Origin: a virus
Reading direction: 5' to 3' (one strand)
Virus record (IMG/VR): IMGVR_UViG_3300027709_000056
Span: 64,001 to 128,000 of that record
Length of the DNA: 64,000 nucleotides
The notes below the pieces were generated by a model. The model worked only from the letters and a program-made list of their open reading frames with translations. It ran no database searches and had not been told where the DNA came from. Shown here one piece after another: positions 3,333 to 34,637 of the stretch (positions within the stretch are counted from its first letter, which is position 1; each line of letters opens with the position of its first letter). Position numbers and translations under genes: made by a program.

Positions 3333-3692
3333 ATGGATGAACGGTTAGCCAAAGCATTAGATTTTTCTAATTATATGGTTACGCTTAATAATCAAAAGCG
3401 TATTTTAAAAGAAAAATATTATGAAAGTGCAGTTCATTACTTTAATGGTGGCCAATTTTCAGTAACTAAAGAGCTGATTACGTTTGTTAGTATGCTTATT
3501 AGCAAAGGTAATGATTCTGATGTAGTATTACTTGATGATAATGATACTCCAATTAAAATTCAAGATTTAGTTAAATTCTTTGACGATATATTGGACATAT
3601 ATTTTACAGCTACTAATGAATATCAAACTGAGTATGAAAAAATTAGAACTAAACGAACAGTTGATGGGTTAGTCCAGTATGAGCAGTCATAA
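3333..3692 (+). CDS. Hypothetical protein
   Basis: 119 aa ORF with good SD (AGGAG). Confidence 0.75.
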   Translation: MDERLAKALDFSNYMVTLNNQKRILKEKYYESAVHYFNGGQFSVTKELITFVSMLISKGNDSDVVLLDDNDTPIKIQDLVKFFDDILDIYFTATNEYQTEYEKIRTKRTVDGLVQYEQS

Positions 3693-4533
3693 GCAAGGTA
3701 TTTTAATTTTTGCTAGAAACAATGCTCAAATTGATTACATAAAACAAGCTCACTTTTTAGCAAAGCGTGTTAAGGAATATTTAAATCTTCCCACATCTAT
3801 AGTTACGGATAGCATAAAGTATCTACATGAAACCTATACAGATTATAAAACTGTATTTGACCAGATTATTGAGGTACCGTATACTAAAGCTCCCAGTAGC
3901 AAACGCTATTATGATGGTGCGAATGTATATAAACAGTTAGAATTTAGGAACGATTTAAGAACTAGTGCATACGATTTAACACCATATGAAGAAACATTAC
4001 TATTAGATAGTGATTACATTGTAAGTAATAGTTTATTTAAACATTGTTTTACACAAGACCATGATTTTTTAATTTATAAAGATGCATACGATTTATGTGA
4101 TCATAGAGATTTTCCAGAATTTGTTCATATTAGTGATACTAGTGTTGATTTTTACTGGGCAACTTGTGTATTTTTTAGAAAAACAGAAACTAATAAAATA
4201 TTTTTTGACCTAACAAAGCATATACAAGAAAACTGGCAACACTATAATAGTATTTTTCAAATTAATAAACGTACCTTTCGTAACGACTGGGTGTTTAGTA
4301 TTGCAGTACATATAATGAATGGTTATCAACGAGGAGATTTTTCACACTCATTACCTAGTAAATTATACTATACAAGCGGCCTGGATATTTGTTGGGAAAT
4401 AAAAGACGATCAGTTTTTCTTTTTAATACAAAAAGAGAAATTCTTAGGTGAATATACGCCTTTAAAAATTAGAGGTAGTAGTGTTCATGTAATAAACAAG
4501 TTTAGTCTTAATAGGGTAATAGATAATGAGTAA
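3679..4533 (+). CDS. Nucleotide-diphospho-sugar transferase-like protein (GT-A/GT8-like)
   Basis: YDLTPYEETLLLDSD (DxD) motif, WAT/FF substrate-region pattern. Confidence 0.65.
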   Translation: MSSHKQGILIFARNNAQIDYIKQAHFLAKRVKEYLNLPTSIVTDSIKYLHETYTDYKTVFDQIIEVPYTKAPSSKRYYDGANVYKQLEFRNDLRTSAYDLTPYEETLLLDSDYIVSNSLFKHCFTQDHDFLIYKDAYDLCDHRDFPEFVHISDTSVDFYWATCVFFRKTETNKIFFDLTKHIQENWQHYNSIFQINKRTFRNDWVFSIAVHIMNGYQRGDFSHSLPSKLYYTSGLDICWEIKDDQFFFLIQKEKFLGEYTPLKIRGSSVHVINKFSLNRVIDNE

Positions 4534-5362
4534 AGGGTTTGTATTTTTAGCACAAAATAGTGAAGACGATTATGTTTTACAAGCGTGTTTATTAGCCATG
4601 AGCTTAAAAGCAACTCAGGAAGATTGTAATATTTGTTTAATTACTAATGATGATGTTCCAGCAAAGTATAAAAAGCTATTTGACGTCATTAAAGAAATTC
4701 CATGGAATGATAGTGCAAAAGATAAAGAGTGGAAAGTAGATAATCGTTGGAAACTATATCATGCATCACCGTATGATGAAACAATTGTACTTGATACAGA
4801 TATGTTGGTATTACAAGACTTAACAAACTGGTGGTCATTCTTAAAAAATTATGATTTATTTTTTGTTAACCGTGTTTATACATACAGGGGAGAATTAATA
4901 ACAAGTGATTATTACCGTAAAACATTTACTGCAAATAATCTACCTAACTTATATGCAGGGTTTCATTATTTTAAAAAATCAGAGTTTGCAAAAGAGTTTT
5001 ATACTTGGTTAGAATTAGTAATGAATAATTGGGAACTGTTTTATGGCAAGTATGCTAAAGAATTGTACCAAAAAAGGGTAAGTGTTGATTTAAGTGCGGC
5101 AATAGTTGCTAAAATACTTGACTGTGATAAGAAGATTACAAATAATAAGAGTTTATTTCCTAGTTTCACACATATGAAGACTTATGTACAAGGCTGGGAA
5201 AACAGTAGTAGCAAATGGCAGAATCGTGTAGGTAGTTATTTGACTCCAGACCTAAAATTAAAAGTAGGGAACCATATGCAACAAGGAATTTTTCATTATA
5301 CTGAGAAAGATTTTGTTACACATGACAAAATTAAGAAATATAGGAAGTGGTTAGGCGTATGA
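4526..5362 (+). CDS. Nucleotide-diphospho-sugar transferase-like protein (paralog of 3679..4533)
   Basis: ASPYDETIVLDTD (DxD) motif; YAGFHYFKK. Confidence 0.65.
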   Translation: MSKGFVFLAQNSEDDYVLQACLLAMSLKATQEDCNICLITNDDVPAKYKKLFDVIKEIPWNDSAKDKEWKVDNRWKLYHASPYDETIVLDTDMLVLQDLTNWWSFLKNYDLFFVNRVYTYRGELITSDYYRKTFTANNLPNLYAGFHYFKKSEFAKEFYTWLELVMNNWELFYGKYAKELYQKRVSVDLSAAIVAKILDCDKKITNNKSLFPSFTHMKTYVQGWENSSSKWQNRVGSYLTPDLKLKVGNHMQQGIFHYTEKDFVTHDKIKKYRKWLGV

Positions 5363-6132
5363 AACCTCAAATTACGATAGCAGGATATGGATACGTAGGT
5401 AAAGCAGTTCATAGTGTTTTAACTAACGCAAAAATTGTAGATCCTAAGTATAATAAAGAGTCAATATCATCTTGGTGGAATAAACCAGGTGGAGTAATCA
5501 TATGTGTAGGTACTCCAACGTTTCAAGGTGTTTGTCAAATGAAAAATGTTATTGATGTTGTAAAGCAAGTACCTAATAGAATACCTATTTTAATAAAAAG
5601 CACAATAAGTTTACGTGGGTGGGAAACATTAATAACAATGTTTGGTAATAAGCCTATAACTTTTAGTCCTGAATTTCTTACTGCCGCAAATCCACTTGAA
5701 GATTTTCAGAAGCAAGGTATGATGTATATAGGAGGCGGCCATACAAAGTTTTGGAGAAAGGTGTTTGATCCGTATTTTACTGTAACTGTAGAAAATCCAA
5801 GAGCATTAATAATTGCAAAATTATTTAGAAATGCTTTTTTAGCCACTAAAGTAAATTTCTTTAATCAAATATATGATTATTGTAAGGAACATGAGTTGGA
5901 TTATAATACAGTTAATAGTTTAATTGCTGTTGATAAACGTATAGGACATAGTCATACAGCAGTTCCTGGTGATGATGGTGTGCAAGGGTTTGGCGGGCGT
6001 TGTTTACCGAAAGATGTTGAAGCATTACTTAATACAGATCCAGAAGCTTTAACGATATTAGCAGAAGTTTTAAAATATAATCGCGGAATTAGAAAAGATT
6101 TAAAGTTATTAAGGGAACAAGGTACAATATAA
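5347..6132 (+). CDS. UDP-glucose/GDP-mannose dehydrogenase family protein (short form)
   Basis: GYGYVG Rossmann motif, CVGTP, LIKSTI, FSPEFL, NAFLATKVNFFN, GFGGRCLPKD catalytic Cys motif. Confidence 0.85.
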   Translation: MVRRMKPQITIAGYGYVGKAVHSVLTNAKIVDPKYNKESISSWWNKPGGVIICVGTPTFQGVCQMKNVIDVVKQVPNRIPILIKSTISLRGWETLITMFGNKPITFSPEFLTAANPLEDFQKQGMMYIGGGHTKFWRKVFDPYFTVTVENPRALIIAKLFRNAFLATKVNFFNQIYDYCKEHELDYNTVNSLIAVDKRIGHSHTAVPGDDGVQGFGGRCLPKDVEALLNTDPEALTILAEVLKYNRGIRKDLKLLREQGTI

Positions 6133-6692
6133 TGGAACGTTACGCTGTTTTTAATCCTGACACAGGCGAGGTATTATCATTACCTAATTATAAACCAGAA
6201 TCTGGAAGTTATATTGCAGTAGATACCCAAGACATTAAAGGTATTTTATCAGGTCATGAACCTATGTCGTATTATTACGTGCATTTTTCTAAACTTACAA
6301 AAAAGTATGAGTTAAGACTACGATTAAACAATAATATAGATAGCTATAACGTCAATGACTTAATTTATGAAATCCCAAAGCGGAAAAAAGCTAATGCAGA
6401 TGTAACTATAACACAAAATACTAAAGACACTTGTTGGAAGATTAAAGTAGATGGAGATCTTAAAGCTAGTATTTTAGCACAAAAGGTTAGTTCAAATTAT
6501 ATAGTAAGTTTTAGTATTACTAGAGTTAATGATCCTAATATTCTTTATAAAACTCTAGAATTAAATTTTGCTAATTTAGAAAATAACAAATATGTTATTA
6601 TTCCATTTACAGAAGACTTTGAATTCAGGGGTGAGCCTGTTTCAATTTACACAATGAAAAAATTTGACAAATATTCTTTGGAGGTGATTTAA
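6132..6692 (+). CDS. Hypothetical protein
   Basis: 186 aa ORF, translationally coupled to neighbours. Confidence 0.7.
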   Translation: MERYAVFNPDTGEVLSLPNYKPESGSYIAVDTQDIKGILSGHEPMSYYYVHFSKLTKKYELRLRLNNNIDSYNVNDLIYEIPKRKKANADVTITQNTKDTCWKIKVDGDLKASILAQKVSSNYIVSFSITRVNDPNILYKTLELNFANLENNKYVIIPFTEDFEFRGEPVSIYTMKKFDKYSLEVI

Positions 6693-6964
6693 TGTTTTAT
6701 TTCTTTTTATTATTATTTTTATTAAATGACGGATTCAGTATGATGAGACATTATAGTCCTTATCTACGTGATCTTAGACAACGTATTATTGACCGAATGA
6801 CACATACAAGATTTATAGTTGTTCATAGTATTATTGATATTAGTTGTGTTATTGGTATGATTTGGGCTTATAATAGCAAGTACAATTTATATGCAATCAT
6901 AGTAGTTGCTATGATTATGATTGTTTGGTACATACCATTAGGATGGCGAAAGTATAAAAAATGA
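6692..6964 (+). CDS. Small membrane protein
   Basis: Two to three hydrophobic segments, basic C-terminus; coupled start/stop. Confidence 0.6.
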   Translation: MFYFFLLLFLLNDGFSMMRHYSPYLRDLRQRIIDRMTHTRFIVVHSIIDISCVIGMIWAYNSKYNLYAIIVVAMIMIVWYIPLGWRKYKK

Positions 6965-7860
6965 GCAATATTAAAATTGCAGAGCAAGATATTATCTTTT
7001 TAAGTTACGATGAACCTAATGCTGAAAAGAATTATGTTGATCTAGTACAAAAAGTGCCGTGGGCAAAGCGTGTTCATGGAGTAGAAGGTTCAGATGCCGC
7101 TCACAAGGCGTGTGCAGAGTTATCTGAAACTAAACATTTTGTTACTGTAGATGGTGATACAATTATTAATCAAAAGTTTTTAGATGTAGTATTAAACTTA
7201 GATGAATTAGGTGTAGATGATGACTATCAATTTAGTTGGTGCGGTAAAGTTAACATCAATGGACTAATGTATGGTAATGGTAGTTTGAAAATGTGGACTA
7301 AAGACTTTGTTAAGAATATGCGTACACATGAAAACACAGATGGTAACGATGATACTATGATTGAATTTTGTTATTTTGACAATTACTATCAGTTAAATGA
7401 CAATTATAGTGAAAGTATTATTAATTCAACTAAAGCCCAAGCCTTTAGAGCAGGGTTTAGAGAAGGTGTTAAGATGAGTCTTAACAGAGGTGCTAGAGTT
7501 ACTGATTTAGCAAAAGATATTTGGTGGCAAAATTATCATAGATTGTTAATATGGATGAATGTTGGTACAGATGTAGAGAACGGGTTATGGGCAATTTATG
7601 GTGCTAGAGAAGGATGCCATCTTGCACTTACTGATTGGGACGTTTCGCAAACAAGAGATTTTACTATTCTTAACAAAATGTGGGATGAAAAATATAGCAA
7701 AATAAAACACTCAAATGAACTGTATCATAAAATAGGTGAACTTGGTTGGCGTTTAAATGAACTAGGATTACCAATGGATCAAAAACCATTGTCAGCAGAT
7801 CAAAGTAAGTTCTTTAAAACTGTTTACATTAATACAGATAGAGTGATACGTAGAAAATGA
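6961..7860 (+). CDS. Glycosyltransferase-like protein (GT-A fold)
   Basis: DIIFLSYDEPNA N-terminus, FVTVDGD (DxD), AFRAGFREGVKM; paralog of 15177..15857. Confidence 0.6.
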   Translation: MSNIKIAEQDIIFLSYDEPNAEKNYVDLVQKVPWAKRVHGVEGSDAAHKACAELSETKHFVTVDGDTIINQKFLDVVLNLDELGVDDDYQFSWCGKVNINGLMYGNGSLKMWTKDFVKNMRTHENTDGNDDTMIEFCYFDNYYQLNDNYSESIINSTKAQAFRAGFREGVKMSLNRGARVTDLAKDIWWQNYHRLLIWMNVGTDVENGLWAIYGAREGCHLALTDWDVSQTRDFTILNKMWDEKYSKIKHSNELYHKIGELGWRLNELGLPMDQKPLSADQSKFFKTVYINTDRVIRRK

Positions 7861-8162
7861 AAAATTGTAGATACTATATAGGAACATTTCGTATGAAAGA
7901 TGATGAAAGTTCTGATATATGGCATGATACAATTATGACAGAACAAATGGGTGACATATTAAGTGATGCATTTCTTTATGGCGGGGAAGTAATGGAAGAA
8001 AGAAGTGTGCCTAGCGACTTTGATATGCTTCATTGTCATTTGTATGTAAGATTTAAAGATGAAAGAAAAGCTATATTGTTTATATTAAAATATCCGCAAG
8101 TTAGACGTTCAGAAAAAATTCAAAGAGACGATTATGCTAAAAACTTGAATTGGGTAGGCTAA
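7857..8162 (+). CDS. Hypothetical protein
   Basis: 101 aa ORF coupled to both neighbours. Confidence 0.6.
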   Translation: MKNCRYYIGTFRMKDDESSDIWHDTIMTEQMGDILSDAFLYGGEVMEERSVPSDFDMLHCHLYVRFKDERKAILFILKYPQVRRSEKIQRDDYAKNLNWVG

Positions 8163-10738
8163 TGGAAAAAGAATTAGATAAAATTAAAAGAATATTACCT
8201 ATCACTGATGCAGAAATTAGTCCTACTTTTTGTTTAGCCAAATGGCATCATACTACTATCTATCTAGCAACAGGTGAAACGCATAGTTGTTATCATCCTG
8301 CTCCACACAAAATACCTTTAGAAGAACTTAAAGACAATCCAAGTGCTTTACATAATACTATAGAAAAGAAAGACCAACGTAATAAAATGCTATGTGGCGA
8401 AAAGCCAGATGGTTGTAGTTATTGTTGGAAAATTGAAGCTATGGGTAAAGACTATGTAAGTGATAGACATATTAAAACAGCAAGTATATACACACCAGAA
8501 CGAGTTGCAGAAATAAAAGAGAAAGGAAAAGACTTTAATGTTAATCCTGAATACATAGAAATTAGTTTTTCAAATGAATGTAATTTTAAGTGTGGATATT
8601 GTCACCCTAAAGCTAGTAGTAGGTACTGGAAAGAGATAGAAGACCATGGTCCTTATAGTAAATCAAGTACACATAGACAAGATATTGATTGGTTTAAAGT
8701 TTATCAAAATGAAGAAGAGAATCCATATGTAAAAGCATGGTGGGAATGGTGGCCCGAAGTTAGTAAAACATTAAACATTTTGCGTATTACTGGTGGTGAA
8801 CCTTTAATGCACAAAAGTCTTTGGGACTTATTCGAAAAACTAGAAGCAGATCCAAAGCCACATATTCAAATTGAAGTTAATAGTAATATGGGTGTTAAGC
8901 ATTCGTTAGTTGAGAAACTAACAAAAATAGTATTAAGACTTAAAGCAAAAAATTGTATTAAAAGTTTTAAATTATACACAAGTATTGATACGTGGGGACC
9001 TAAAGCTGAATATATTCGTACAGGATTAGATTTAGAATTGTGGGAAAAGAACTTAGATTACTTTTTAAGGAATACTCCTTTCTCTGTTATTTTTATGATT
9101 ACATTTAATATCTTTAGTGTTACAAGTTTTAATTTATTATTAGAAAAAATATTAGAATGGCGTTCTAGGTATAATGGAATTGTAGCTAATCAAGTAAGAT
9201 GGCAAAAAGTACAATTTGATACGCCTCATTTAAAAGAACCTAGTATATATGATATGAATATATTACCTAAAGATGAGTTTATGCCATATATGGAAAAGAA
9301 CTTACAATCTATGATTGAACATCAAGATGATAAAGATAGGAATAAATTTAGTTCATTAGAAGTAGAAAAGTTTAGACGTGTAGTTGACTATATGCGTACA
9401 ACACATTACACACCAGTCAAACTTAAACAAGCTCATAAAGACTTTTATAATTGGTTTACAGAATTTGATAAAAGAAAAAGCACTAATTTAGTTAAAACGT
9501 TTCCTGAATTCGAAGTATTTTATGATGATTGTTTTATGGCAACCATGGAAGGTAAAACTCTTTGTATGCTTCCGTGGGTTCATATGTATGTAGGTGCAGA
9601 TGGAAACGTTTTACCTTGTTGTATAGGTGATTATAAACAGCCTTTAGGTAGTACGCATAAAAATAGCATAAAAGAGATTTGGAATAGTCCGCAATATAAA
9701 AAATTACGTCTGCAAATGCTTAATAACGAGAAACCATCAGCCTGTAATCAATGCTGGAAACACGAAGAAGCAGGAGGTGAAAGTAGTCGTTATAATAAAA
9801 ATAAAATGTTTAAAGAAGATTTACCGTTAATAGAAAAAACTAATAGTGATGGTAGTTTAGATGAAATGAAACTACGTTATATGGATGTACGTTGGAGTAA
9901 TATTTGTAATTTTAAATGTAGAACTTGTAGTGCGTCATTTAGTTCTACTTGGGCTCAAGAAGATAATGAATGCGGTGATAAGAAAGATGTCTTTATTTTT
10001 GCTGGCGGCAAAGATAACGATTCGTTATACGAACAATTTAAACCACATTTTAAAGATGTAAAAGTTTTTTATTTTGCTGGCGGTGAACCGTTAGTTACTG
10101 ATAAGCATTATGATATTTTAGAACACTTAATTGAAACTAATAATACAGATGTTTCATTACAATACAATTCAAATCTTAGTAATTTGTTTTATAAGAAAAA
10201 ATGTGTTACAGAATTATGGAATAAATTTTCTGATGTTAAAGTAGCGGCAAGTTTAGATAGTTGGGGAGACAGAGCTGAATATATTCGTGAAGGAACAGAA
10301 TGGCCTGTAATAATGGACAATTTAAATCGTGTAAAAAAAGATTCACCACACGTAAATATGACGTTCAATAGTGTTATAAGTGTTTTTAATATTTTAACAA
10401 TTACAGATTTTTTAACTTATATGGAAAATAATGGCTTTAAAACTAATCATGGTGTATTATATAATCTTGTTCATCCAGCACATTATCATATAAATGTTTT
10501 ACCTGCTAATTTAAAACAACTAGCATATCAAAAGATTGTAGCTCATGCACAAACAGTCCATAATAAAGGAATGTCTATGCAATTACAAGGTGTGTTAGAT
10601 TATATTAATGATTCAAAATTCGATCAAATGGCACAAATTAATTTTATATCAACTACACTACGTTATGATAAAATAAGAAATAGATCTTTTAGTAAAACAT
10701 TTCCTGAACTTAAAGATGCATTCGGTGATCGTTATTAG
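8162..10738 (+). CDS. Tandem fusion of two N-terminal-twitch radical SAM enzymes
   Basis: Unit 1: FCLAKW..SCYH..CSYC, then CNFKCGYC and TGGEP. Unit 2: LCMLPW..PCC..CNQC, then CNFKCRTC and AGGEP. Start probably 8162 (TAATG overlap); the ORF track gives 8150. Confidence 0.85.
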   Translation: MEKELDKIKRILPITDAEISPTFCLAKWHHTTIYLATGETHSCYHPAPHKIPLEELKDNPSALHNTIEKKDQRNKMLCGEKPDGCSYCWKIEAMGKDYVSDRHIKTASIYTPERVAEIKEKGKDFNVNPEYIEISFSNECNFKCGYCHPKASSRYWKEIEDHGPYSKSSTHRQDIDWFKVYQNEEENPYVKAWWEWWPEVSKTLNILRITGGEPLMHKSLWDLFEKLEADPKPHIQIEVNSNMGVKHSLVEKLTKIVLRLKAKNCIKSFKLYTSIDTWGPKAEYIRTGLDLELWEKNLDYFLRNTPFSVIFMITFNIFSVTSFNLLLEKILEWRSRYNGIVANQVRWQKVQFDTPHLKEPSIYDMNILPKDEFMPYMEKNLQSMIEHQDDKDRNKFSSLEVEKFRRVVDYMRTTHYTPVKLKQAHKDFYNWFTEFDKRKSTNLVKTFPEFEVFYDDCFMATMEGKTLCMLPWVHMYVGADGNVLPCCIGDYKQPLGSTHKNSIKEIWNSPQYKKLRLQMLNNEKPSACNQCWKHEEAGGESSRYNKNKMFKEDLPLIEKTNSDGSLDEMKLRYMDVRWSNICNFKCRTCSASFSSTWAQEDNECGDKKDVFIFAGGKDNDSLYEQFKPHFKDVKVFYFAGGEPLVTDKHYDILEHLIETNNTDVSLQYNSNLSNLFYKKKCVTELWNKFSDVKVAASLDSWGDRAEYIREGTEWPVIMDNLNRVKKDSPHVNMTFNSVISVFNILTITDFLTYMENNGFKTNHGVLYNLVHPAHYHINVLPANLKQLAYQKIVAHAQTVHNKGMSMQLQGVLDYINDSKFDQMAQINFISTTLRYDKIRNRSFSKTFPELKDAFGDRY

Positions 10739-11654: not shown

Positions 11655-11656
11655 TC

Positions 11657-11821
11657 CTAAAGTTTCCCACGCTTCAACATTTCTTTTGTTACTTTGTAGG
11701 GTATTTTTTCAATTTTGCCACCTTTAGCAAGAAATTCTTTCATCATACGATCACGTTCCTCTTGTGTTGTTCTTTTTTCAGGTTTAGTACTAGTGTATGC
11801 TCTGTTTATCTCAATGCCCAT
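11657..11821 (-). CDS. Small hypothetical protein (54 aa, absent from ORF track)
   Basis: Hand translation: MGIEINRAYTSTKPEKRTTQEERDRMMKEFLAKGGKIEKIPYKVTKEMLKRGKL*. Fills the gap exactly and overlaps the upstream stop. Confidence 0.7.
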   Translation of the reverse strand: MGIEINRAYTSTKPEKRTTQEERDRMMKEFLAKGGKIEKIPYKVTKEMLKRGKL

Positions 11822-13079: not shown

Positions 13080-13106
13080 ATATAAAAATCACTGGGTTAA
13101 AATGCC

Positions 13107-13131: not shown

Positions 13132-13157
13132 TACGCATATAATGATTTAAGGATAAC

Positions 13158-21284: not shown

Positions 21285-21289
21285 AGTAG

Positions 21290-21305: not shown

Positions 21306-21310
21306 CAGTA

Positions 21311-25741: not shown

Positions 25742-25783
25742 AATAACAGTATTTATTGATGCCTAACTTGGTAAGATTTTAAT

Positions 25784-28868: not shown

Positions 28869-29509
28869 TAGAACCTCGTTATAAAGGCTACTGCTGTAAT
28901 TTCAGAATCATAATCACCTCGTTGCCATCCTCTGGTTACCATCATGCTTACCTTTGGTGTAATTTTATAACCAAGTCCGGCGGTAACTGTTTCTGTTTCC
29001 CAAACAATATCATCAGAATCTCTAAATCTATAATTTAGATCAGTAAAAAGTCTGTCAGTAAGTTTATACTGTGTTCCAACTTTTATTGTAAAATAATCAT
29101 CTGTGTTTTTGTCTGAGTTTTCATACTTTCTCCAACCCAAGCTATAGAATGCATACGGGGAAAAGTCTTTAATCCTCGTTGTATATCCAATACCAGCCAT
29201 CCACCTTGTTTCGTCATTAACAGCTGAAAGGTTCGGATAACCTTTCTGGTACATACCAGTTAATGTAAACCCGCTATCAAATCTATAAAATCCTTGGACT
29301 TGAAATAGGTCAACGCTTAATGTTTCGGAAATTGTTTCAACACCATAACCTGAACCTACAACTAACTTCTTTAAATTAAAAAGCGGTTCTTTTTTTACTG
29401 TTTCAGTATCAGTAGGTGGTGTTTGAGCATGGGCGGCAGTTAATCCAATAGGACCGGCTACCGCTGTCAATGATAGTATCATTGCTCCGATTAAGATAAT
29501 TTTTTTCAT
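28868..29509 (-). CDS. Outer-membrane beta-barrel protein
   Basis: Signal peptide MKKIILIGAMILSLTAVA..AHA, alternating aromatic strands (GIGYT, VGTQYK, GLGYK), terminal Phe. Start 29509 by ATGA overlap; the track gives 29539. Confidence 0.75.
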   Translation of the reverse strand: MKKIILIGAMILSLTAVAGPIGLTAAHAQTPPTDTETVKKEPLFNLKKLVVGSGYGVETISETLSVDLFQVQGFYRFDSGFTLTGMYQKGYPNLSAVNDETRWMAGIGYTTRIKDFSPYAFYSLGWRKYENSDKNTDDYFTIKVGTQYKLTDRLFTDLNYRFRDSDDIVWETETVTAGLGYKITPKVSMMVTRGWQRGDYDSEITAVAFITRF

Positions 29510-29913
29510 GTGGTCTTTCCCCAATTTATTAAGTTCCAAATTCTTTCATGTGTGTAATGTACAACGATGAACAGGATATTTGTTACAATAGTCCACTCTA
29601 ACGCATGAGCAGAACTAAGACCCATCATCATACCAATTACAAATAAAACAAACATGGACCATAGTCGCCAAGTAACCGTCTTAGCCGTTGTTCTAAAGTG
29701 TGTATCCTTGTTGTCTATTCTTTGCCATTTAACTCTATTCCATATTTTTTCTTGTACCCAGAACGATGCAAACCCAACAGTATATGATAGAATAACAAAT
29801 GTAATTCCAAATCCTGCTGAATAGTTCATTGCCAGTGCCGCGAGAAAAATGCTCACTGCAACGACTGTTCTGTATGAAAGAGTTTTTACTACTGTCCTAA
29901 GATTATTATCCAT
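29506..29913 (-). CDS. Duplicated DUF2061-like membrane protein
   Basis: Two RTxxKTxxxR...ERIWN repeats with TM segments; GGAGG SD before ATG at 29913. Confidence 0.7.
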   Translation of the reverse strand: MDNNLRTVVKTLSYRTVVAVSIFLAALAMNYSAGFGITFVILSYTVGFASFWVQEKIWNRVKWQRIDNKDTHFRTTAKTVTWRLWSMFVLFVIGMMMGLSSAHALEWTIVTNILFIVVHYTHERIWNLINWGKTT

Positions 29914-29960
29914 TATGTCCTCCAATTAAGATCTATGAGTTTCATAGTACAGTTACTATA

Positions 29961-29967
29961 TACTTAT
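29961..29967 (-). promoter_or_regulatory. Late-type promoter motif ATAAGTA
   Basis: Intergenic, upstream of the DUF2061-OMP-adenylating enzyme genes. Confidence 0.45.
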
Positions 29968-29989
29968 TGTTCTGCAAAACCGGGGGGTA

Positions 29990-30466
29990 TTATTGTGGCA
30001 TTCCAGGCGGAGTGAATTTATCCCCAAATGATGATTTTAAATCACTATGTAATTTTTCTATTATTTCTTGGGGACTGTATATGCCTACATTATCCCAATC
30101 TACGATCTGTATATTATTTCCATCAATAAGAATATTGCTTAATTGCCAATCACCGTGGGCGTAAGGAGATGTATGATTAATATGATTAATACAGAAATTA
30201 TAAATTTTATCTATAAATTGTTCAGTAATCGGAAATGTATTTGCTGGTATTCCCGGTATAATTTTATAATCTATATATAAGCTCTCTGTAGTAACACCGT
30301 GAGTAATAACAAATCCAGGCATAAGTTTTTCTAAAATATCTAAATGTTCTTCAAGAGCCGCTTCATCTGGGTTATGTTCTGGTTTACATTGCCAAGTCTT
30401 TCTATAGAAATCTGGGAATTTCCAGACTTGCCGTGAGTTCTCTTTGTTATCTTTGATTAAGTCCAT
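29990..30466 (-). CDS. Small APH/protein-kinase-like phosphotransferase
   Basis: HGDWQLSNI catalytic loop and IVDWD Mg-binding motif. Confidence 0.7.
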   Translation of the reverse strand: MDLIKDNKENSRQVWKFPDFYRKTWQCKPEHNPDEAALEEHLDILEKLMPGFVITHGVTTESLYIDYKIIPGIPANTFPITEQFIDKIYNFCINHINHTSPYAHGDWQLSNILIDGNNIQIVDWDNVGIYSPQEIIEKLHSDLKSSFGDKFTPPGMPQ

Positions 30467-31263
30467 ACGTCAAAACTCTCTTCCCCATAAACGCAACCGT
30501 TAATGTTGCAGTTTTTACAAGGAGATTTTCCAGACCTTAGTCCACTTGCTAATTTATTTCTATAGTCCATTATTTCATCACCAAGCCATATCTCCTTTAT
30601 CGAAGTTTTATGTATGTTACCAAGTATCCCTTTTCTAGCCCAATCCTCAGAGCATACTAACGCATCACCATTCCAGTCAATAAACATTTTGTAAAAGGGC
30701 AAGTAACAAGGCTTTGTAATATTTTCTAATTTTTTTCCAAGTATATTATTTGTTCTATCAACCAATGTTAATTCAAATCTTTCAGGATAACAATGCCTAG
30801 GCATTATTTCAATATTTGTATCTCCACGCATTTCTAATAGTTCTTTTGTTATATCTTTATCATACATACTAACCATTATGTGTGTACATCCTGCATCAGC
30901 AAAATTCTTTATCTTATTAGCAGTAAGAAAGTCACCGTTAGTGTTTATGTCAATCCACTTGGCATCAGTTTGAGCGATAATTTCTATTTGTCTTGCTAGT
31001 TTTTTATGTAACAACGGTTCGCCAAATCCTACAAAGCCAACCCTACCATTAAATTTAATATCCTTAAGATCATCAGCAAGTTTTTGTGTAGTGCTTTCTG
31101 ATATAACCCAGTTCTTATTTGTATATATGTCTGGATTGCTTCTTGGACAGAAGTCACAAAATCTGTTGCATATATCAACAGGATTAATCTGTATGCTTCT
31201 TAAAGAAGAAAGTTTATCAGTTGCACCGGATGATTGCTGGGTTCGTAAGTTATGTAGGTTCAT
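30457..31263 (-). CDS. Radical SAM/SPASM protein
   Basis: CNRFCDFC, GFGEPL, CYLPF..DWNGDALVC..CKNC. Confidence 0.85.
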   Translation of the reverse strand: MNLHNLRTQQSSGATDKLSSLRSIQINPVDICNRFCDFCPRSNPDIYTNKNWVISESTTQKLADDLKDIKFNGRVGFVGFGEPLLHKKLARQIEIIAQTDAKWIDINTNGDFLTANKIKNFADAGCTHIMVSMYDKDITKELLEMRGDTNIEIMPRHCYPERFELTLVDRTNNILGKKLENITKPCYLPFYKMFIDWNGDALVCSEDWARKGILGNIHKTSIKEIWLGDEIMDYRNKLASGLRSGKSPCKNCNINGCVYGEESFDVWT

Positions 31264-31265
31264 AG

Positions 31266-32051
31266 CTAACTCCAGTCATGCTTAGAATATTTGTTATATT
31301 CTGCTAGAGTGTCCATATCTATTAATGACATTCTATAAAGACCGTTAACTTGTTTATAGCCAAGTTTCTCTGTGTATTGATTAGGTTTCTTAAAAAGAAC
31401 GTAATTGCTATTTGAAGGAACGCAATCAAAGTTTGTTTCTAAGTAGTTTCTAGTTTTAATCATTCTTTTTATATGATTTGGAATATCATTTAATATGTAT
31501 TTTAATGTGTCGCTTGGTATTGTAGCACATATAGGTCTATATTTTTTTAGTTCTTCTATTACAGTTTTATTTGCTATGCACCAACCAAACCTTGCACCAG
31601 GCATAGCATAACTCTTAGATAATGTTTTTAATACTATAATGTTTTCTACGTGTTCATATATTACGCTTTCGTTAGCAAAGTCACCGTATGCTTCATCAAC
31701 AATTAGGTATTTGTAATCTTTTGCCATTTCAATAACACGTTCTTTAGAAATTACTGTACCATCATTACCGTTTGGGTTGATAAGATAGTATACATCATCT
31801 CCTAATGGAACATTAAATTGTGTAGCACCATACCAAGGATACTGACAAACTGTCATTGATAAATTATTATCTTGTAAAAAGCGTTCTAATCGAACTGCAA
31901 GTTCACTGATGCCATATCCAACTTCGATGTGCTTATAGTTGTAGTGGTGCGTTAAAACAGAAAGTTCATCAGCATGAGTAACATATCTTCTTACATCTAA
32001 TTTTAAATTAATATTTTTGTCATAGCATACATTTTGAGCCAAACTAATCAT
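31266..32051 (-). CDS. Class I/II PLP aminotransferase (HisC-like, compact)
   Basis: NPNGNDG, IVDEAY, KTLSKSYAMPGARFG, SNYVLF. Confidence 0.8.
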   Translation of the reverse strand: MISLAQNVCYDKNINLKLDVRRYVTHADELSVLTHHYNYKHIEVGYGISELAVRLERFLQDNNLSMTVCQYPWYGATQFNVPLGDDVYYLINPNGNDGTVISKERVIEMAKDYKYLIVDEAYGDFANESVIYEHVENIIVLKTLSKSYAMPGARFGWCIANKTVIEELKKYRPICATIPSDTLKYILNDIPNHIKRMIKTRNYLETNFDCVPSNSNYVLFKKPNQYTEKLGYKQVNGLYRMSLIDMDTLAEYNKYSKHDWS

Positions 32052-32647
32052 TAATATGATCCTCTCATTATAGGCCCTTTGCCTTCATTTATTCTATGCA
32101 TACCAGGTTGCTTACTTTGAATATTTAGAACTTTAATGTAAGGATTTTCAACTATTGTTTTAATGTGTGCTACAATGTCATCAACAGTAATACCATTAAG
32201 GTGTGGATATTGTTCTAGTTCTCCATTTCCATCTATATGACTTATGTTAATAATTTTTGAATCTAAATAACTATTAAAGAATGCTTTGGCAAAATTAATT
32301 TTTTTGTTAGTTAAATTTAATAATTGTTTTTCTAAATCAGCTGTTCCTTCAGGATTATGTAATACAGCTAATCCTAAATAACTTCCTATATTAAGAACTG
32401 TATGTTTTATTTTTTTAGTATTACAATATTGATATAAGTCAACTAAAAGTTTGCTGGCTCTAAAACCGTACCCTGGACAAAAATTAATTGTTAGATCATA
32501 CTCTTCTGTTTTATCTAAGAATAATTTAATATCAACATCAAAGTTTATATCCCAGCCAGACTCTCTGCTGTAAAAACTAGTAGTATATAGTTTTGCTATT
32601 TCTTTTCCTAGCCAATGATTTGGATTACTGGTTATTCTAGCTCTCAT
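32051..32647 (-). CDS. Degenerate short-chain dehydrogenase-like protein
   Basis: SRESGWDI, TINF, VLNIGS patterns; glycine-rich loop eroded. Confidence 0.4.
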   Translation of the reverse strand: MRARITSNPNHWLGKEIAKLYTTSFYSRESGWDINFDVDIKLFLDKTEEYDLTINFCPGYGFRASKLLVDLYQYCNTKKIKHTVLNIGSYLGLAVLHNPEGTADLEKQLLNLTNKKINFAKAFFNSYLDSKIINISHIDGNGELEQYPHLNGITVDDIVAHIKTIVENPYIKVLNIQSKQPGMHRINEGKGPIMRGSY

Positions 32648-33524
32648 AATTTGCTCTCGTATATGGTAGTATAACAGCAGACGACGAATCTAATATTTTA
32701 AATAAAGGTTCTTTATTAGTATTAAGGCTACCAACGTAATAATAAACATTACTTAACCACACGGCTGTTCTTTCATTGCAATTGTATAATAATCTTTCCA
32801 GGTCATCTTCACGCCTAATATCACAAAGTCCATACTCTACATTACAATCCTTTAAAAAATTATAGTATTTTTGAACAGTTTCAATGTCTATTTGTTTAAT
32901 ATCTTCAACGGTTGCTGAACGTTTTCCTGTATGTAGTACAGGAAGAAACCTATCGTAAACTTCGTTTATATCGTCAGCTTGTATTAGTTCCCTTTGAAAT
33001 TTTAAACTTACAGGACTATAATCATAAAATTCAATATCTTTTATATTATTTTCGTATGCCCATCTAGCCATCATTGTTCCACTAGCTAGGCCAACTAGTC
33101 TGTCATAGTCACCTTCAAGTTTAAAGTACTTTTCAGTATTTTTATAATAGACTCTTTCTTTAACAAGTGGTTCAAATTCTTGTAGTTTCTCTTTTAGCGT
33201 TTCTCTATTATTAGCATTATATAGATCTAAGTAGTCTATAGGATTATCAATGTGAGTAACTGGGTAATCATTAGATAGTCTTTGTTCAAAAACTACTTTT
33301 CCATTTACAGATACAAATACATTCCAACCAAGAGGGCGATCAAGAATAGTATATAGTGTTTTGTCTGTAAACAAACATCCTTCTTGTATTTTTATATAAG
33401 GGAATTTAGGTTCTTTAGCATTACCTACAACAGTAAATGGAGCGTTCATAGGATTTATTATACCACAGAAGGTAAGTGTTTCCTCTAGATACTTGTCTTC
33501 AATGTTGTCAATATATACATTCAT
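32637..33524 (-). CDS. Hypothetical protein
   Basis: 295 aa, first gene of the minus-strand cassette. Confidence 0.7.
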   Translation of the reverse strand: MNVYIDNIEDKYLEETLTFCGIINPMNAPFTVVGNAKEPKFPYIKIQEGCLFTDKTLYTILDRPLGWNVFVSVNGKVVFEQRLSNDYPVTHIDNPIDYLDLYNANNRETLKEKLQEFEPLVKERVYYKNTEKYFKLEGDYDRLVGLASGTMMARWAYENNIKDIEFYDYSPVSLKFQRELIQADDINEVYDRFLPVLHTGKRSATVEDIKQIDIETVQKYYNFLKDCNVEYGLCDIRREDDLERLLYNCNERTAVWLSNVYYYVGSLNTNKEPLFKILDSSSAVILPYTRANYES

Positions 33525-33559: not shown

Positions 33560-33567
33560 GGTAAAAC

Positions 33568-34056
33568 ATGGAATTTTTTAGCAGAACTGATATAAAGGTA
33601 GATCTTAATAGGATTACTAATGACTATTTGGACAACAAGGATACGTGGCCTTGGTCACACAATAAGGTTGCTATTAATAATCATACTGGTTCACCCGACG
33701 AAACTGATACAAAATATAAACTTGTCTATACAGAATATAAATTTATAAATCCAATATTCAAAAATTCTATCTGGGAAGAAACAATTAATCAATTACCGAT
33801 TAAAAAAGGTAGAGCAAGACTACAAATTATGAAACCGTTTAGCATTTTAACTGCACATAGAGACTTTGAACAAAGATATCACCTTGCTATTAAAACAGAC
33901 CCAGCTTGTCTATTTGTTGATGTTAATGAAAATAAAACTTACCATATTCCTGCTGATGGATATTTTTATAAAGTTAATACTATGAAACTCCATACAGTAT
34001 TCAATGCCAGTAATAATTGTGACAGGCTTCATTTAGTTGTGAGCGAATATGTATAA
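33568..34056 (+). CDS. Aspartyl/asparaginyl beta-hydroxylase-like Fe(II)/2OG dioxygenase
   Basis: RARL..L.AHRD..RYHL, HTVFN..RLHLV (HxD...H...R). Confidence 0.7.
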   Translation: MEFFSRTDIKVDLNRITNDYLDNKDTWPWSHNKVAINNHTGSPDETDTKYKLVYTEYKFINPIFKNSIWEETINQLPIKKGRARLQIMKPFSILTAHRDFEQRYHLAIKTDPACLFVDVNENKTYHIPADGYFYKVNTMKLHTVFNASNNCDRLHLVVSEYV

Positions 34057-34324
34057 TACATTTTTGAATATAGAGCTTTCTAAGGAGTTTGATCTTGATG
34101 CCACTGATGAAAGTATATCTTGGTCTAAAAAAGCAGATCTAGTGTCTATAGTTAATCAATATATTACTAATAAGCAACTAGTAGAAATATTAAAGGTAAA
34201 CGAGGATTATGTATTTACTTGGGATAATCAAGATAGTTATAAAAAATTTATAACCGAAAACCTATTTGTAGAAATGTTCTTTTTGTTAAAGAATTCAGGG
34301 GTGTTTATTTCATGGAAGGAATAG
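34049..34324 (+). CDS. Hypothetical protein
   Basis: 91 aa coupled ORF. Confidence 0.55.
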   Translation: MYNTFLNIELSKEFDLDATDESISWSKKADLVSIVNQYITNKQLVEILKVNEDYVFTWDNQDSYKKFITENLFVEMFFLLKNSGVFISWKE

Positions 34325-34637
34325 CAGTACTTCTATATTGAGCTTCAACTTCGTTAGGCCAGAACCAAACAGTATCAACAATATTCTTAATATCTAAGTT
34401 TTCAATGTAGTTCTCTATTGATCGTTTCATGTCATCAGTAGGACTTACAGCATATATCGTTGTAATAGTTCCGCCCCAGTCAGTAAAGCCACTTCTTAAC
34501 ATCTGTTTCCAACCAAAGACAGTTGCATCAAGTTCAGCAAAAGTATCATCAATAGATATGACTACTACGTTGTGTATTTTATTTGATAATTGTGATTCGT
34601 CTGGAATAGACCAAAATACTGTTATGTCATTACGCAT
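34305..34637 (-). CDS. Hypothetical protein
   Basis: 110 aa; ATAAATA 5 nt before the ATG. Confidence 0.6.
   Translation of the reverse strand: MRNDITVFWSIPDESQLSNKIHNVVVISIDDTFAELDATVFGWKQMLRSGFTDWGGTITTIYAVSPTDDMKRSIENYIENLDIKNIVDTVWFWPNEVEAQYRSTAIPSMK

Follow-up and report, generated by a model that had tools for sequence, protein, structure and literature searches.

What does a giant phage gain from a dense set of radical SAM enzymes lodged between its tail-fibre genes? The question is raised by the window analysed here, a stretch of 64,000 nucleotides from a 199.8-kb IMG/VR contig that represents ~56% of the jumbo myovirus genome of an uncultured marine giant phage and of which only ~5% is non-coding. 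Positions 3333-34637 of the window form a 31-kb radical SAM and putative glycan-tailoring island. Eight radical SAM genes are joined there by five glycosyltransferase (GT)-like genes, three SGNH-like genes, a pair of UDP-sugar dehydrogenases, a pair of aminotransferases and a PP-loop ATPase. An earlier note on this DNA had placed tail-fibre genes on both flanks, an assignment borne out by family matches:

859-2364, + strand: tail-fibre-like structural protein, left flank (phrog_19602 tail fiber protein, E=8.3e-15; kept in 53 related loci)
2368-3276, + strand: conserved 302-aa ORF of the fibre module, without a family match
34681-36054, - strand: tail-fibre protein with an Mtd_N domain, right flank (PF18454, E=4.2e-10)

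The position between fibre genes also holds in relatives.

The radical SAM content is exactly as first described, eight genes and nine CxxxCxxC domains with extra cysteines. A Pfam search placed PF04055 above the cut-off in eight genes, and when the complete 199.8-kb record was searched in six frames, nine domains were found, all within the island and none outside it. There are nine Cx3Cx2C motifs, each of the eight genes encodes at least four additional cysteines, and SPASM (PF13186) exceeds its cut-off in five of them.

8150-10738, + strand: fusion of two N-terminal-twitch radical SAM units, 862 aa (NF033640, 700.6 bits over two stretches)
15814-16803, + strand: radical SAM enzyme with a C-terminal Cys cluster (PF04055)
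16794-17798, + strand: radical SAM enzyme, Fer4_12 type (Pfam)
19206-20198, + strand: radical SAM/SPASM enzyme (Pfam; 36-38% homologues in Bdellovibrionota)
22392-23294, - strand: radical SAM enzyme, Fer4_12 type (Pfam)
23278-24990, - strand: N-terminal-twitch radical SAM enzyme with an extra 150-aa N-terminal extension (NF033640, 321.7 bits, residues 152-569)
25784-27199, + strand: N-terminal-twitch radical SAM enzyme (NF033640, 398.1 bits; AF2 pLDDT 90.4)
30457-31263, - strand: compact radical SAM/SPASM enzyme (Pfam; 31% homologue in a Bacteriovoracales genome)

Four domains of the island, deeply diverged copies, belong to the N-terminal-twitch family NF033640 (cut-off, 170 bits), which to our knowledge has no characterised member. 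The fusion corresponds to two separate genes in most relatives, and the alignment of 23278-24990 to its relatives is confined to residues 151-570. Homologues of 25784-27199 (47-50%) occur in Pseudobdellovibrionaceae and those of 15814-16803 (50-52%) in Bdellovibrionota; the latter gene has no homologue among 50,697 phage records. Gene 22392-23294 is the top QueE match of the record, though far below threshold. The radical SAM fold search gave similar Z-scores for anSME (13.3), CteB (12.7), BlsE (12.7), viperin (11.9) and DesII (11.8), and such model-based comparison cannot separate sugar-acting from protein-acting enzymes.

Comparison with 160 related loci, taken from two sets of matching viral contigs (234 and 175), revealed that the island is not one unit, as had been assumed, but a clade-wide core (3333-20198 and 22392-27199) and two genome-specific cassettes. 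Synteny blocks of the core recur in >200 viral contigs, and most of the 160 loci contain it. The core genes are under purifying selection (dN/dS 0.08-0.24), and no stops were seen in them; gene order is partly rearranged among relatives, but the set itself is retained. Five large related records hold 8-15 radical SAM domains each, and in a complete relative of 357.6 kb all 13 fall within one 22-kb stretch. Part of the core is carried by Ralstonia phage RsoM2USA. Bdellovibrionota chromosomes also encode members of NF033640 and of five or more further island families, with up to 16 copies per genome; the bacterial neighbours of NF033640 genes encode GT2 enzymes, a sugar-type carbamoyltransferase and an AsnB-type amidotransferase. 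The island is genuinely a coherent module of many enzymes, not a set of genes brought together by chance. The earlier note knew of no assigned function for such a density of radical SAM genes in a phage. The density has a published precedent, likewise with no assigned function: Campylobacter phages CP220 and CPt10 carry 11-12 radical SAM genes (PMC2853527).

The carbohydrate-related genes of the core are the following:

3679-4533, + strand: GT8-like (glycogenin-like) candidate, DSD motif (PDB profile: glycogenin only, E=0.25)
4526-5362, + strand: GT8-like glycosyltransferase, DTD motif (glycogenin-1 profile match, E=1.5e-5)
5347-6132, + strand: compact UDP-glucose/GDP-mannose dehydrogenase, 261 aa (PF00984, E=1.4e-16; GYGYVG and GGRCLPKD motifs)
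6961-7860, + strand: GT-A-fold, GT2-like transferase of an undescribed family, DGD motif (hhalign to 15177-15857)
11811-13079, - strand: GT10-like (fucosyltransferase-like) candidate (conserved NE...SEK block; Atlas lead to PF00852 at only 0.78-0.79)
13158-14333, + strand: UDP-glucose/GDP-mannose dehydrogenase (PF03721, E=1.3e-20; PF00984, E=1.3e-18; GGACHPRD motif)
15177-15857, + strand: GT-A-fold transferase (AF2 pLDDT 90.6)

Both dehydrogenases combine Pfam matches with the GxGxxG and GGxCxx(K/R)D motifs, in line with their original description; the compact one was found in only 29 loci, and the island has no other gene for NDP-sugar synthesis. About five GT-like genes had been counted, and they are present, but their assignment is remote: none of the five passes a Pfam GT model, and four assignments draw on weak profile, fold or motif evidence. 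Genes 6961-7860 and 15177-15857 are paralogues (hhalign probability 100%, E=1.5e-38), the former with homologues of 39-45% in Pseudobdellovibrionaceae and Haliscomenobacter and of 44% in RsoM2USA. The model of 15177-15857 resembles B4GALNT1 (Z 11.4, rmsd 2.8 over 135 residues) and the fucosyltransferase WrtF (Z 10.4), and its Foldseek list includes the PBCV-1 capsid glycosyltransferase; the predicted GT-A fold is common to nucleotidyltransferases at equal Z (~10.5). A PDB profile search with 11811-13079 returned nothing.

The other genes outside the cassettes, up to the small ORFs before the right fibre, are listed here:

3333-3692, + strand: first island gene, highly conserved 119-aa acidic protein (62 loci; dN/dS 0.10; nothing in Pfam, NCBIfam or PHROGs)
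6132-6692, + strand: conserved 186-aa protein (68 loci; no family match)
6692-6964, + strand: poorly conserved 90-aa ORF with two hydrophobic segments (5 loci)
7857-8162, + strand: 101-aa ORF of close relatives only (12 loci)
10710-11654, - strand: SGNH-like protein (invariant GCS, GKSGAGN and DGHP blocks in the alignment; no Pfam match)
11657-11821, - strand: small ORF missing from the program-made ORF list (last 29 codons conserved at the same place in six close relatives)
14330-15184, + strand: SGNH hydrolase-like protein (GDS ... DNGH motifs)
17795-18412, + strand: class I methyltransferase/spermidine-synthase-like protein (weak PF01564, Spermine_synth; GGWNG and DIDP blocks)
18409-19218, + strand: weak, variable SGNH-like protein (NF047474, E=0.0018; GCS ... 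DNLH; 25 loci)
24974-25741, - strand: PP-loop ATP pyrophosphatase (SGGADS) with a C-terminal CxxCxxC, remotely QueC-like
33568-34056, + strand: Asp/Arg beta-hydroxylase-like oxygenase (PF05118, 29.4 bits; ATAAATA at 33539)

Motifs sustain the three SGNH-like genes noted before, with family support from one weak match (NF047474) only. Likewise, 17795-18412 is methyltransferase-like at a remote level, its PDB profile search being empty, and the supposed QueC-like ATPase is a PP-loop protein whose likeness to QueC is distant; PF06508 was not found in the 199.8-kb record. The proposed dioxygenase is matched by PF05118, and in relatives its homologue adjoins the radical SAM block.

Cassette 1 (20314-22414), cassette 2 (27191-33524) and the small ORFs at 34049-34637 have no counterpart in relatives. 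The compact radical SAM enzyme at 30457-31263 lies in cassette 2, together with the genes listed here:

20314-21284, - strand: two ORFs, cassette 1 (0 of 160 loci)
21311-22414, + strand: class III PLP aminotransferase, cassette 1 (PF00202, E=1.1e-44; only 7 distant matches in the loci)
27191-27757, - strand: 188-aa ORF, cassette 2 (0 loci)
27738-28868, - strand: adenylate-forming (AMP-binding) enzyme, cassette 2 (PF00501; no relative in a pattern scan of IMG/VR)
28868-29539, - strand: outer-membrane beta-barrel protein, cassette 2 (PF13505, E=4.9e-9)
29506-29925, - strand: DUF2061 membrane protein, cassette 2 (Pfam; three hydrophobic segments)
29990-30466, - strand: short APH-like kinase fragment, cassette 2 (PF01636, 22 bits, under the cut-off)
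31266-32051, - strand: short class I/II PLP aminotransferase, cassette 2 (PF00155, E=1.7e-16)
32051-33524, - strand: two ORFs, cassette 2 (0 viral loci; no family match)
34049-34324, + strand, and 34305-34637, - strand: two small ORFs (0 loci; ATAAATA at 34643)

The cassettes thus contain both aminotransferases, the adenylating enzyme and the outer-membrane protein, all four recovered by Pfam as expected, and a kinase-like gene whose APH match stays below the cut-off. A hydrophobic-segment scan found no polytopic membrane protein outside cassette 2, hence no flippase, polymerase or initiating transferase.

The timing of expression was approached through promoter motifs. ATAAATA occurs 45 times in the record, 33 of these 8-70 nt upstream of a same-strand start, and marks operon heads of the island, of both flanking fibre genes and of baseplate or fibre genes elsewhere:

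828-834, + strand: ATAAATA late-type motif upstream of 859 (before 50 of 50 homologues in relatives)
3303-3309, + strand: GTAAATA variant at the island head (TAAATA before 50 of 60 homologues, against a 4.6% background)
13107-13130, divergent: ATAAATA pair for 13158 (+) and 11811-13079 (-) (motif scan)
25724-25756, divergent: ATAAATA motifs for 25784 (+) and 24974-25741 (-) (motif scan)

The motif is retained by all 35 homologues of 11811-13079 and, at 36084 and 36102 ahead of the right-flank fibre, by 6 of 6 homologues; internal genes lack it. Matches to sigma70 of at least 11/12 number 0 in 3000-22900 and 6 in 44000-63900, which agrees with the described contrast between late motifs here and sigma70 promoters in the right arm. 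Because ATAAATA is common to the tail-fibre and baseplate genes and is conserved in relatives, the island is assigned in silico to the late class.

Judged from these sequences, a carbohydrate-directed function is in keeping with the GT-like genes, both dehydrogenases, the SGNH-like genes and the bacterial sugar-tailoring neighbours. We tentatively favour, at somewhat less than even probability, a pathway in which a glycan is assembled in the cytoplasm, edited by radical chemistry and attached to virion proteins, probably those of the tail fibre. In such a late-expressed, wholly cytoplasmic pathway, host UDP-glucose would be converted to UDP-uronic acid by the dehydrogenase(s), and the two GT8-like, two new GT-A family and one GT10-like enzymes would put sugars on a cytoplasmic acceptor, most likely a virion protein of the adjoining tail-fibre module, to build a short glycan. 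Editing would proceed by oxygen-independent radical chemistry: each radical SAM enzyme, with a putative auxiliary Fe-S cluster, may abstract hydrogen from a different sugar position and so oxidise, epimerise, deoxygenate, decarboxylate or cross-link the sugar. BtrN, DesII and BlsE are characterised relatives with such chemistry. The PP-loop ATPase could activate a carboxylate, such as that of the uronate ahead of amidation, and the SGNH-like and methyltransferase-like proteins may add or remove small groups. Lineage-specific finishing beside the receptor-binding fibre would fall to the cassettes, with their aminotransferases, adenylating enzyme, kinase-like gene and extra radical SAM enzyme.

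Other targets are conceivable. Glycosylated DNA is known from T4-like phages, and enzymes of the radical SAM, PLP and kinase types take part in pathways for thymidine or deazaguanine hypermodification; with these precedents, and with FolE (44503-45030) near the island, one can envisage a modified base, sugar-bearing or elaborated in another way, that counters host restriction. It is very improbable, given that the island carries the late structural-gene motif and not the strong sigma70-type promoters of the replication arm, that Pfam detected no DNA-binding, base-exchange or nucleotide-kinase family in the core, and that TGT (PF01702) was not found in the record. Glycan-free radical modification of a virion protein or ribosomal peptide (cross-links, epimerisation, formylglycine-type oxidation) would suit the protein- or peptide-modifying SPASM/twitch enzymes among the leading fold and family neighbours (anSME, CteB, SkfB, SuiB, EpeE) and the conserved micro-ORF at 11657-11821. 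We regard it as improbable: none of the eight enzymes, whose cores begin 13-43 residues from the N-terminus or follow a twitch domain, showed a peptide-binding domain of the RRE/PqqD type, no small ORF is conserved clade-wide, protease and transporter are both absent, and this reading leaves both the five GT-like genes and the pair of sugar dehydrogenases unaccounted for. A soluble sugar-derived small molecule (aminoglycoside-, aminocyclitol- or nucleoside-like), serving as a cofactor or in warfare with host, phages or grazers, has rather more to recommend it, but is still unlikely. The biosynthesis of 2-deoxystreptamine pairs the radical SAM dehydrogenase BtrN with the aminotransferase BtrS, a logic echoed by the two aminotransferases and the adenylating enzyme of the window, and the fold matches with tied scores include BlsE and DesII. 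The PP-loop enzyme could also serve deazapurine chemistry, because FolE and a PTPS/QueD gene are present elsewhere in the record and canonical QueC is absent. Radical SAM genes are paired with amidinotransferases in CP220 (PMC2853527) and in phage S-SCSM2R (PMC12801897). However, the aminotransferases and the adenylating enzyme lie outside the conserved core, an acceptor-bound oligomer is suggested by the five transferase-like genes, no exporter is encoded, and it is not obvious why genes for a metabolite would be expressed late and next to fibre genes.

The main rival of a virion glycan is remodelling of the host envelope, in which the soluble enzymes would act on lipid-linked host glycans at the inner membrane face (LPS or lipo-oligosaccharide core, capsule precursors); we consider it doubtful, with perhaps one chance in a few. 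GT8 is the family of glycogenin, the only PDB match of 3679-4533 and 4526-5362, and also that of LPS core transferases, and the family PF05118, to which the oxygenase 33568-34056 belongs, includes lipid A hydroxylases. Cassette 2 encodes outer-membrane beta-barrel and DUF2061 membrane proteins, and the variable cassettes adjoin the receptor-binding fibre. Many GT and LPS genes are found in large marine T4-like cyanophages, where they have been interpreted as serving envelope remodelling (PMC12801897). On the other hand, with a late-type promoter common to virion genes, little time would remain before lysis for the surface to change, the envelope genes are confined to a genome-specific cassette and absent from the conserved core, and the island has no lipid-carrier transferase, flippase or ligase.

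Against a glycan edited on the virion stand the role of GT8 in LPS core synthesis and the outer-membrane protein of cassette 2, both of which make an envelope target conceivable, as well as the remote GT assignments, the fold matches shared with nucleotidyltransferases and protein-acting enzymes, and the lack of NDP-sugar synthesis genes other than the dehydrogenases. Were the envelope the target, the surface of the infected cell would be altered, for example blocking the adsorption of progeny or rival phages to infected cells and debris.

The island is a putative glycan biosynthesis and tailoring cluster, in itself a known kind of gene cluster, and its dominant enzyme family has no characterised member in the literature searched. 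The eight radical SAM genes and nine domains counted in the earlier note were recovered by profile search, with PF04055 scores of 31-61 bits (cut-off 29.5), and the radical SAM domains detected by a six-frame search covering the full record are nine, every one of them within the island. The CxxxCxxC count is likewise nine, with one Cx3Cx2C per gene and two in the 862-aa protein, and the auxiliary Cys clusters correspond to at least four further cysteines in each radical SAM gene. SPASM (PF13186) exceeds its cut-off in 8150-10738, 19206-20198, 23278-24990, 25784-27199 and 30457-31263. The Cys clusters of 15814-16803, 16794-17798 and 22392-23294 are C-terminal and have no SPASM match.

The NCBI family NF033640 (N_Twi_rSAM) takes in four of the island domains, scoring 700.6 bits in two stretches for 8150-10738, 321.7 for 23278-24990 and 398.1 for 25784-27199 (curated cut-off 170). 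All four retain four N-terminal cysteines and a CNxKCxxC motif. The twitch lies N-terminal to the core, with C32, C50, C107 and C110 ahead of C164/C168/C171, an arrangement that is invariant in 35 phage and bacterial sequences, and the Pfam order in 23278-24990 and 25784-27199 is SPASM and then Radical_SAM. The predicted structure of an N-terminal-twitch enzyme (pLDDT 90.4) displays the usual radical SAM core, and its fold matches are anSME (Z 13.3), CteB (12.7), BlsE (12.7), SkfB (12.2), viperin (11.9) and DesII (11.8). Because enzymes acting on sugars, peptides, proteins and nucleotides tie within about 1.5 Z in this search, the substrate class is not readable from the fold. In the literature the family is catalogued only; we found neither a characterised member nor a study of the family or of an island of this type.

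In a tree of 35 N-terminal-twitch sequences each of the four window copies belongs to a different subfamily, and the subfamilies are deeply separated. The copies are old and distinct, which argues that they would catalyse different reactions rather than being redundant. Each subfamily mixes bacterial and phage members; the starred branches of the tree force at least five phage/bacterium changes, and the most parsimonious count is six.

The architecture of these genes varies among the relatives. The 862-aa product of 8150-10738 is a fusion of two N-terminal-twitch genes in the window phage and its closest relatives, and most relatives instead have the two as separate genes, which overlap and encode about 457 and 395 aa; one subgroup has an unrelated 306-aa gene between the two. 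The 570-aa radical SAM ORF (23278-24990) has an in-frame N-terminal extension of 150 residues that matches no family and that most relatives lack, so that they match residues 151-570 only. A second group of five radical SAM domains occurs at about 115-122 kb in G158, the record of related locus L141, about 90 kb from its main island.

Loci and segments of N-terminal-twitch genes
L027:9995-12545, twitch gene pair in a relative, counterpart of window 8150-10738
L015:9995-13447, twitch gene pair in a relative, counterpart of window 8150-10738
24541-24990 (-), N-terminal extension of the 570-aa ORF
L207 (G002:C1:792852-803016), bacterial N-terminal-twitch locus

A search of a species-representative genome collection revealed that the cellular homologues of the N-terminal-twitch enzymes are concentrated in Bdellovibrionota, at up to 50% identity. 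Mis-binned phage DNA was ruled out as their source, because the loci adjoin rpoD, dnaG, a tRNA synthetase, glutamate dehydrogenase and further housekeeping genes on contigs of 0.56-3.0 Mb, which are genuine chromosomes. The family was found in 31 of 151 sampled Bdellovibrionota genomes and in none of 14 control genomes. Each of five genomes (G001-G005; Bdellovibrionota and one Haliscomenobacter) has 12-16 matches, of which 11-16 exceed the family cut-off, and some of the bacterial genes stand as seven tandem copies. The bacterial loci also contain homologues of the radical SAM genes 15814-16803 (52%), 19206-20198 (38%) and 16794-17798/22392-23294, and of 6961-7860 (39-45%), 15177-15857 (43%) and 17795-18412 (32%). 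Two pairs of adjacent genes, 15177-15857 with 15814-16803 and 6961-7860 with 8150-10738, are conserved in phage and bacteria alike. Their neighbours include two GT2 genes, a NodU/TobZ-type carbamoyltransferase and an AsnB-type amidotransferase, which are typical partners in sugar tailoring.

The five genes described earlier as glycosyltransferase-like were tested with profiles built from relatives, and they retain that description on remote profile, fold and motif evidence, and none passed a Pfam GT model. For 4526-5362 glycogenin (GT8) was the sole match (E=1.5e-5) and for 3679-4533 the match to glycogenin was weak (E=0.25); both keep the DxD motif, and Pfam did not find PF01501 (GT8) in either. 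An hhalign comparison (probability 100%, E=1.5e-38) makes 6961-7860 a paralogue of 15177-15857, and a DGD motif is nearly invariant in them. The AF2 model of 15177-15857 (pLDDT 90.6) has a GT-A fold, with matches to B4GALNT1 (Z 11.4, rmsd 2.8 over 135 residues) and the fucosyltransferase WrtF (Z 10.4). Since nucleotidyltransferases tie at a Z of about 10.5, the predicted fold supports no specific activity, and the pair are putative transferases. Pfam was blank for PF00535 (GT2) in both, and the GT2 lead from the Atlas (0.88) comes from a family present on just 13% of the cluster members. The fifth gene, 11811-13079, has a conserved NE...SEK block, which is a GT10-like motif, and a weak Atlas lead (0.78-0.79); Pfam found no PF00852 (GT10) in it. 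Profile searches of the PDB returned nothing, or spurious matches, for 6961-7860, 11811-13079, 15177-15857, 17795-18412 and 24974-25741. In one relative a 649-aa protein (L129:17091-19040 (-)) is made up of multiple degenerate repeats, each from the N-terminal half of a GT-A domain of the 15177 type, and one intact copy after them.

Among the remaining genes, both UDP-sugar dehydrogenases exceed the Pfam cut-off and contain GxGxxG and GGxCxx(K/R)D, their UDP-binding C-terminal domain being below detection at that cut-off. The two PLP aminotransferases, the adenylating enzyme, the outer-membrane barrel and the Asp/Arg-hydroxylase-like oxygenase are also backed by Pfam. The three SGNH-like genes possess blocks of the SGNH type but no Pfam match: 14330-15184 has GDS, GGAGN and DNGH blocks, and 10710-11654 and 18409-19218 have GCS variants, with a weak NF047474 match (E=0.0018) for 18409-19218. 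The gene 24974-25741, previously called a QueC-like ATPase, has the PP-loop SGGADS, but its likeness to QueC is remote (weak PHROG match, E=2.8e-4), and a true QueC was ruled out because PF06508 has no match in the whole record. A class I methyltransferase or spermidine synthase is suggested for 17795-18412. For ten unknown ORFs NCBIfam and PHROGs yielded two or three weak matches at most. The gap between 10710-11654 and 11811-13079 is occupied by a previously unlisted small ORF, 11657-11821 (-), whose last 29 codons show 76-80% conservation in six close relatives, where they occupy the corresponding position; this conserved end corresponds to a basic peptide beginning at an internal Met-Met.

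The window is positions 64001-128000 of a single linear IMG/VR viral record of 199,810 bp. CheckV rates the record 56% complete, which makes the source a jumbo phage with a genome of about 350 kb; the record of one relative, of 357,559 bp, is rated 100% complete. The baseplate wedge protein shares 34-36% identity with those of Agrobacterium phage Atu_ph07, Salicola phage SCTP-2, Sinorhizobium phage Phosso, Serratia phage BF and similar jumbo myoviruses. At the DNA level no deposited phage matched when 20 kb were compared by megablast with 50,697 phage records. A protein search with the 862-aa enzyme returned distant Vibrio phage matches and RsoM2USA at 30%, and nothing else. All genes in the matching region of RsoM2USA are annotated as hypothetical, and the RsoM2USA paper does not mention them. 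Among deposited isolates RsoM2USA was the sole one in which N-terminal-twitch and 6961-like genes were found. The 15814-16803-type radical SAM protein was unmatched in deposited phages. No RNA family was found by an Rfam search of the window, and the convergent gap 20199-20313 folds no better than its shuffles (z -1.0 to -1.4).

Relatives of the 862-aa enzyme at 62-90% identity occur on 234 IMG/VR contigs, and those of the 570-aa enzyme on 175. A tblastn comparison of every window ORF with 160 fetched loci divides the island into a core (3333-20198 and 22392-27199), which together with the oxygenase gene 33568-34056 is present in most loci reaching that far, and two cassettes (20314-22414 and 27191-33524) that, like the small ORFs in 34049-34637, have no counterpart in the 160 loci. 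The cassettes contain both aminotransferases, the adenylating enzyme, a kinase-like fragment, the outer-membrane and DUF2061 proteins and one compact radical SAM/SPASM gene; a pattern scan of IMG/VR confirmed no relative of the adenylating enzyme of cassette 2. At the same place the relatives carry other, unrelated genes, flanked by the oxygenase gene and the gene for the Mtd_N fibre. The earlier note had named random shuffling with pseudogenisation as evidence against its proposal. Core gene order is indeed partly rearranged among relatives, but the gene set is retained, no stops were seen, and dN/dS for the closest pairs is 0.08-0.24. Five large related records have 8-15 radical SAM domains each, and in the complete 357.6-kb relative all 13 lie within one 22-kb stretch.

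The position of the island between fibre genes is upheld by a tail-fibre PHROG match for 859-2364 and by the Mtd_N domain of 34681-36054, a domain of receptor-binding fibres. In promoters of the T4 late type a phage late sigma factor reads a TATAAATA-like element, which lies some 10 nt before the start of the late transcript. As proposed earlier, all operon heads of the island have a late-type motif in front of them, either ATAAATA or a variant that differs in one base, and the same holds for both flanking fibre genes.

Island operon heads with the late-type motif
3333, operon head
11811-13079, operon head
13158, operon head
20559-21284, operon head
24974-25741, operon head
25784, operon head
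29506-29925, operon head
32637-33524, operon head
33568, operon head
34305-34637, operon head

ATAAATA occurs 45 times in the record, and 33 of these copies sit 8-70 nt upstream of a start on the same strand, in a record with about 5% non-coding DNA. In other parts of the record it stands ahead of genes for the baseplate wedge, the baseplate hub, a tail spike or fibre and virion structural proteins. Among the relatives ATAAATA is found upstream of the homologues of 859 (50/50), 11811-13079 (35/35) and 34681-36054 (6/6), and TAAATA upstream of 50 of 60 homologues of 3333, against backgrounds of 0.7% and 4.6%, respectively; it is missing upstream of the internal island genes in relatives. Near-perfect sigma70 promoters occur in the right arm as the earlier note had described, with six sites of 11-12/12 matches in 44000-63900 and none in 3000-22900. 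Because the motif is common to fibre and baseplate genes and conserved in relatives, and sigma70 sites of that quality are missing from 3000-22900, the island is, by its promoter motifs, in the class of the virion genes, and late timing is predicted.

Sigma70 sites (12/12 and 11/12) of the right arm, coding strand
63005-63033 (-), sigma70 site
50550-50578 (-), sigma70 site
54518-54546, sigma70 site
51468-51495, sigma70 site
45202-45230 (-), sigma70 site

With somewhat less than even confidence, we favour a cytoplasmic pathway that would place a short, radical-edited glycan on a virion protein, probably one of the fibre module. Three features suggest this reading: there are five transferase-like genes, the dehydrogenases would form uronic acids, and the conserved late motif also marks the fibre genes. 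The individual steps, taken from family chemistry, would comprise uronate formation by the UDP-sugar dehydrogenases, sugar transfer by the transferase-like enzymes, a radical SAM step (oxidation, epimerisation, deoxygenation or decarboxylation), activation of a carboxylate by the PP-loop enzyme and, as a further step, small-group tailoring. Nearly all island proteins are predicted to be soluble; a hydrophobicity scan found more than one hydrophobic segment only in the 90-aa ORF and the DUF2061 protein of cassette 2, and 0-1 in the rest of the core. Pfam searches of the island found no initiating transferase, flippase/transporter or polymerase/ligase family, and a Wzx/Wzy- or ABC-dependent polysaccharide cluster was rejected because this membrane machinery is missing. 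Remodelling of the host envelope is the main alternative, if rather an unlikely one, to which the role of GT8 enzymes in LPS and the envelope proteins encoded by cassette 2 lend weight.

A soluble sugar-derived metabolite is improbable as the product, and direct modification of a protein or peptide still more so. A RiPP cluster was rejected because an RRE/PqqD-like domain occurs in none of the eight radical SAM enzymes and a small ORF conserved across the clade, as a candidate precursor peptide, was not found. DNA hypermodification is the least probable reading and scarcely to be expected; no DNA-modification family was detected in the island core. The record does encode FolE (44503-45030 (-)) and a PTPS/QueD-type enzyme (G000:C1:180544-180915 (-), in the coordinates of the full record) and has no Pfam-detectable QueC or TGT, so the PP-loop gene and the QueE-like 22392-23294 could touch deazapurine chemistry, at scores far below the family cut-offs. 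This island gene and 43462-44328 are the best QueE-like matches in the record, both far sub-threshold.

The N-terminal-twitch enzymes share with BtrN, DesII, BlsE and anSME a partial TIM-barrel radical SAM core and an auxiliary Fe-S cluster, and the substrate of BlsE is a glucuronate, uronic acids being also what the island is predicted to make. They differ in that their auxiliary domain is N-terminal rather than C-terminal, and sequence identity is just 15-20%. NF033640 is elsewhere a catalogued family; here four deeply diverged subfamilies occur in one phage island, two of them fused in the 862-aa protein.

Virus-encoded glycosylation of virions is established for the capsid glycans of chlorovirus PBCV-1 and the fibril glycans of mimivirus. 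Mycobacteriophage virion glycosylation is cited in PMC12801897 (Freeman et al. 2023, PMC10527164). Like the island with its putative transferases, these systems have soluble virus-encoded glycosyltransferases beside or among structural genes, and the Foldseek matches of 15177-15857 include the PBCV-1 capsid glycosyltransferase. We know of no radical SAM enzyme in any of the three. In the island radical SAM enzymes outnumber transferases, and virion glycosylation is a prediction. The T4-related Campylobacter phages CP220 and CPt10 carry 11-12 radical SAM genes in exchangeable modules with no assigned function; these clusters include amidinotransferases, and no link to glycosyltransferases or fibres was described (PMC2853527). 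They are distant in sequence, and Campylobacter phages are missing among the matches of the 862-aa protein. A large cyanophage has a radical SAM gene among glycosyltransferases, which was interpreted as antibiotic synthesis (PMC12801897). Bacterial O-antigen, LOS and capsule clusters resemble the predicted gene content of the island in their UDP-sugar dehydrogenase, GT8/GT2/GT10-type transferases, O-acyl esterase-like proteins and amidating or aminating enzymes, but the island lacks their initiating phosphoglycosyl transferase, flippase, polymerase and ligase. SDR-type dehydratases/epimerases were not found by Pfam in the island, and its radical SAM enzymes may stand in for them.

A wider proposal, which we regard as doubtful, is that the N-terminal-twitch paralogues and their partner radical SAM families form a new carbohydrate-editing class. 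Each would catalyse a different oxygen-independent C-H functionalisation of sugars already on a virion (tail-fibre) protein and so give a radically edited glycan coat; the lineage-specific finishing cassettes would co-vary with the receptor-binding fibre, and jumbo phages and predatory Bdellovibrionota would repeatedly have exchanged the toolkit with each other. If so, hundreds of abundant aquatic jumbo phages would devote a noticeable share of their genomes to radical, oxygen-independent sugar editing, which to our knowledge has not been described for any virus. Were a small molecule or the host envelope the target instead, the product would still be likely to be new. The proposal, if true, would provide enzymology and glycoengineering with new carbohydrate-tailoring reactions, add a layer to phage host recognition and evasion, and link these phages to predatory bacteria that hold many copies of the same toolkit.
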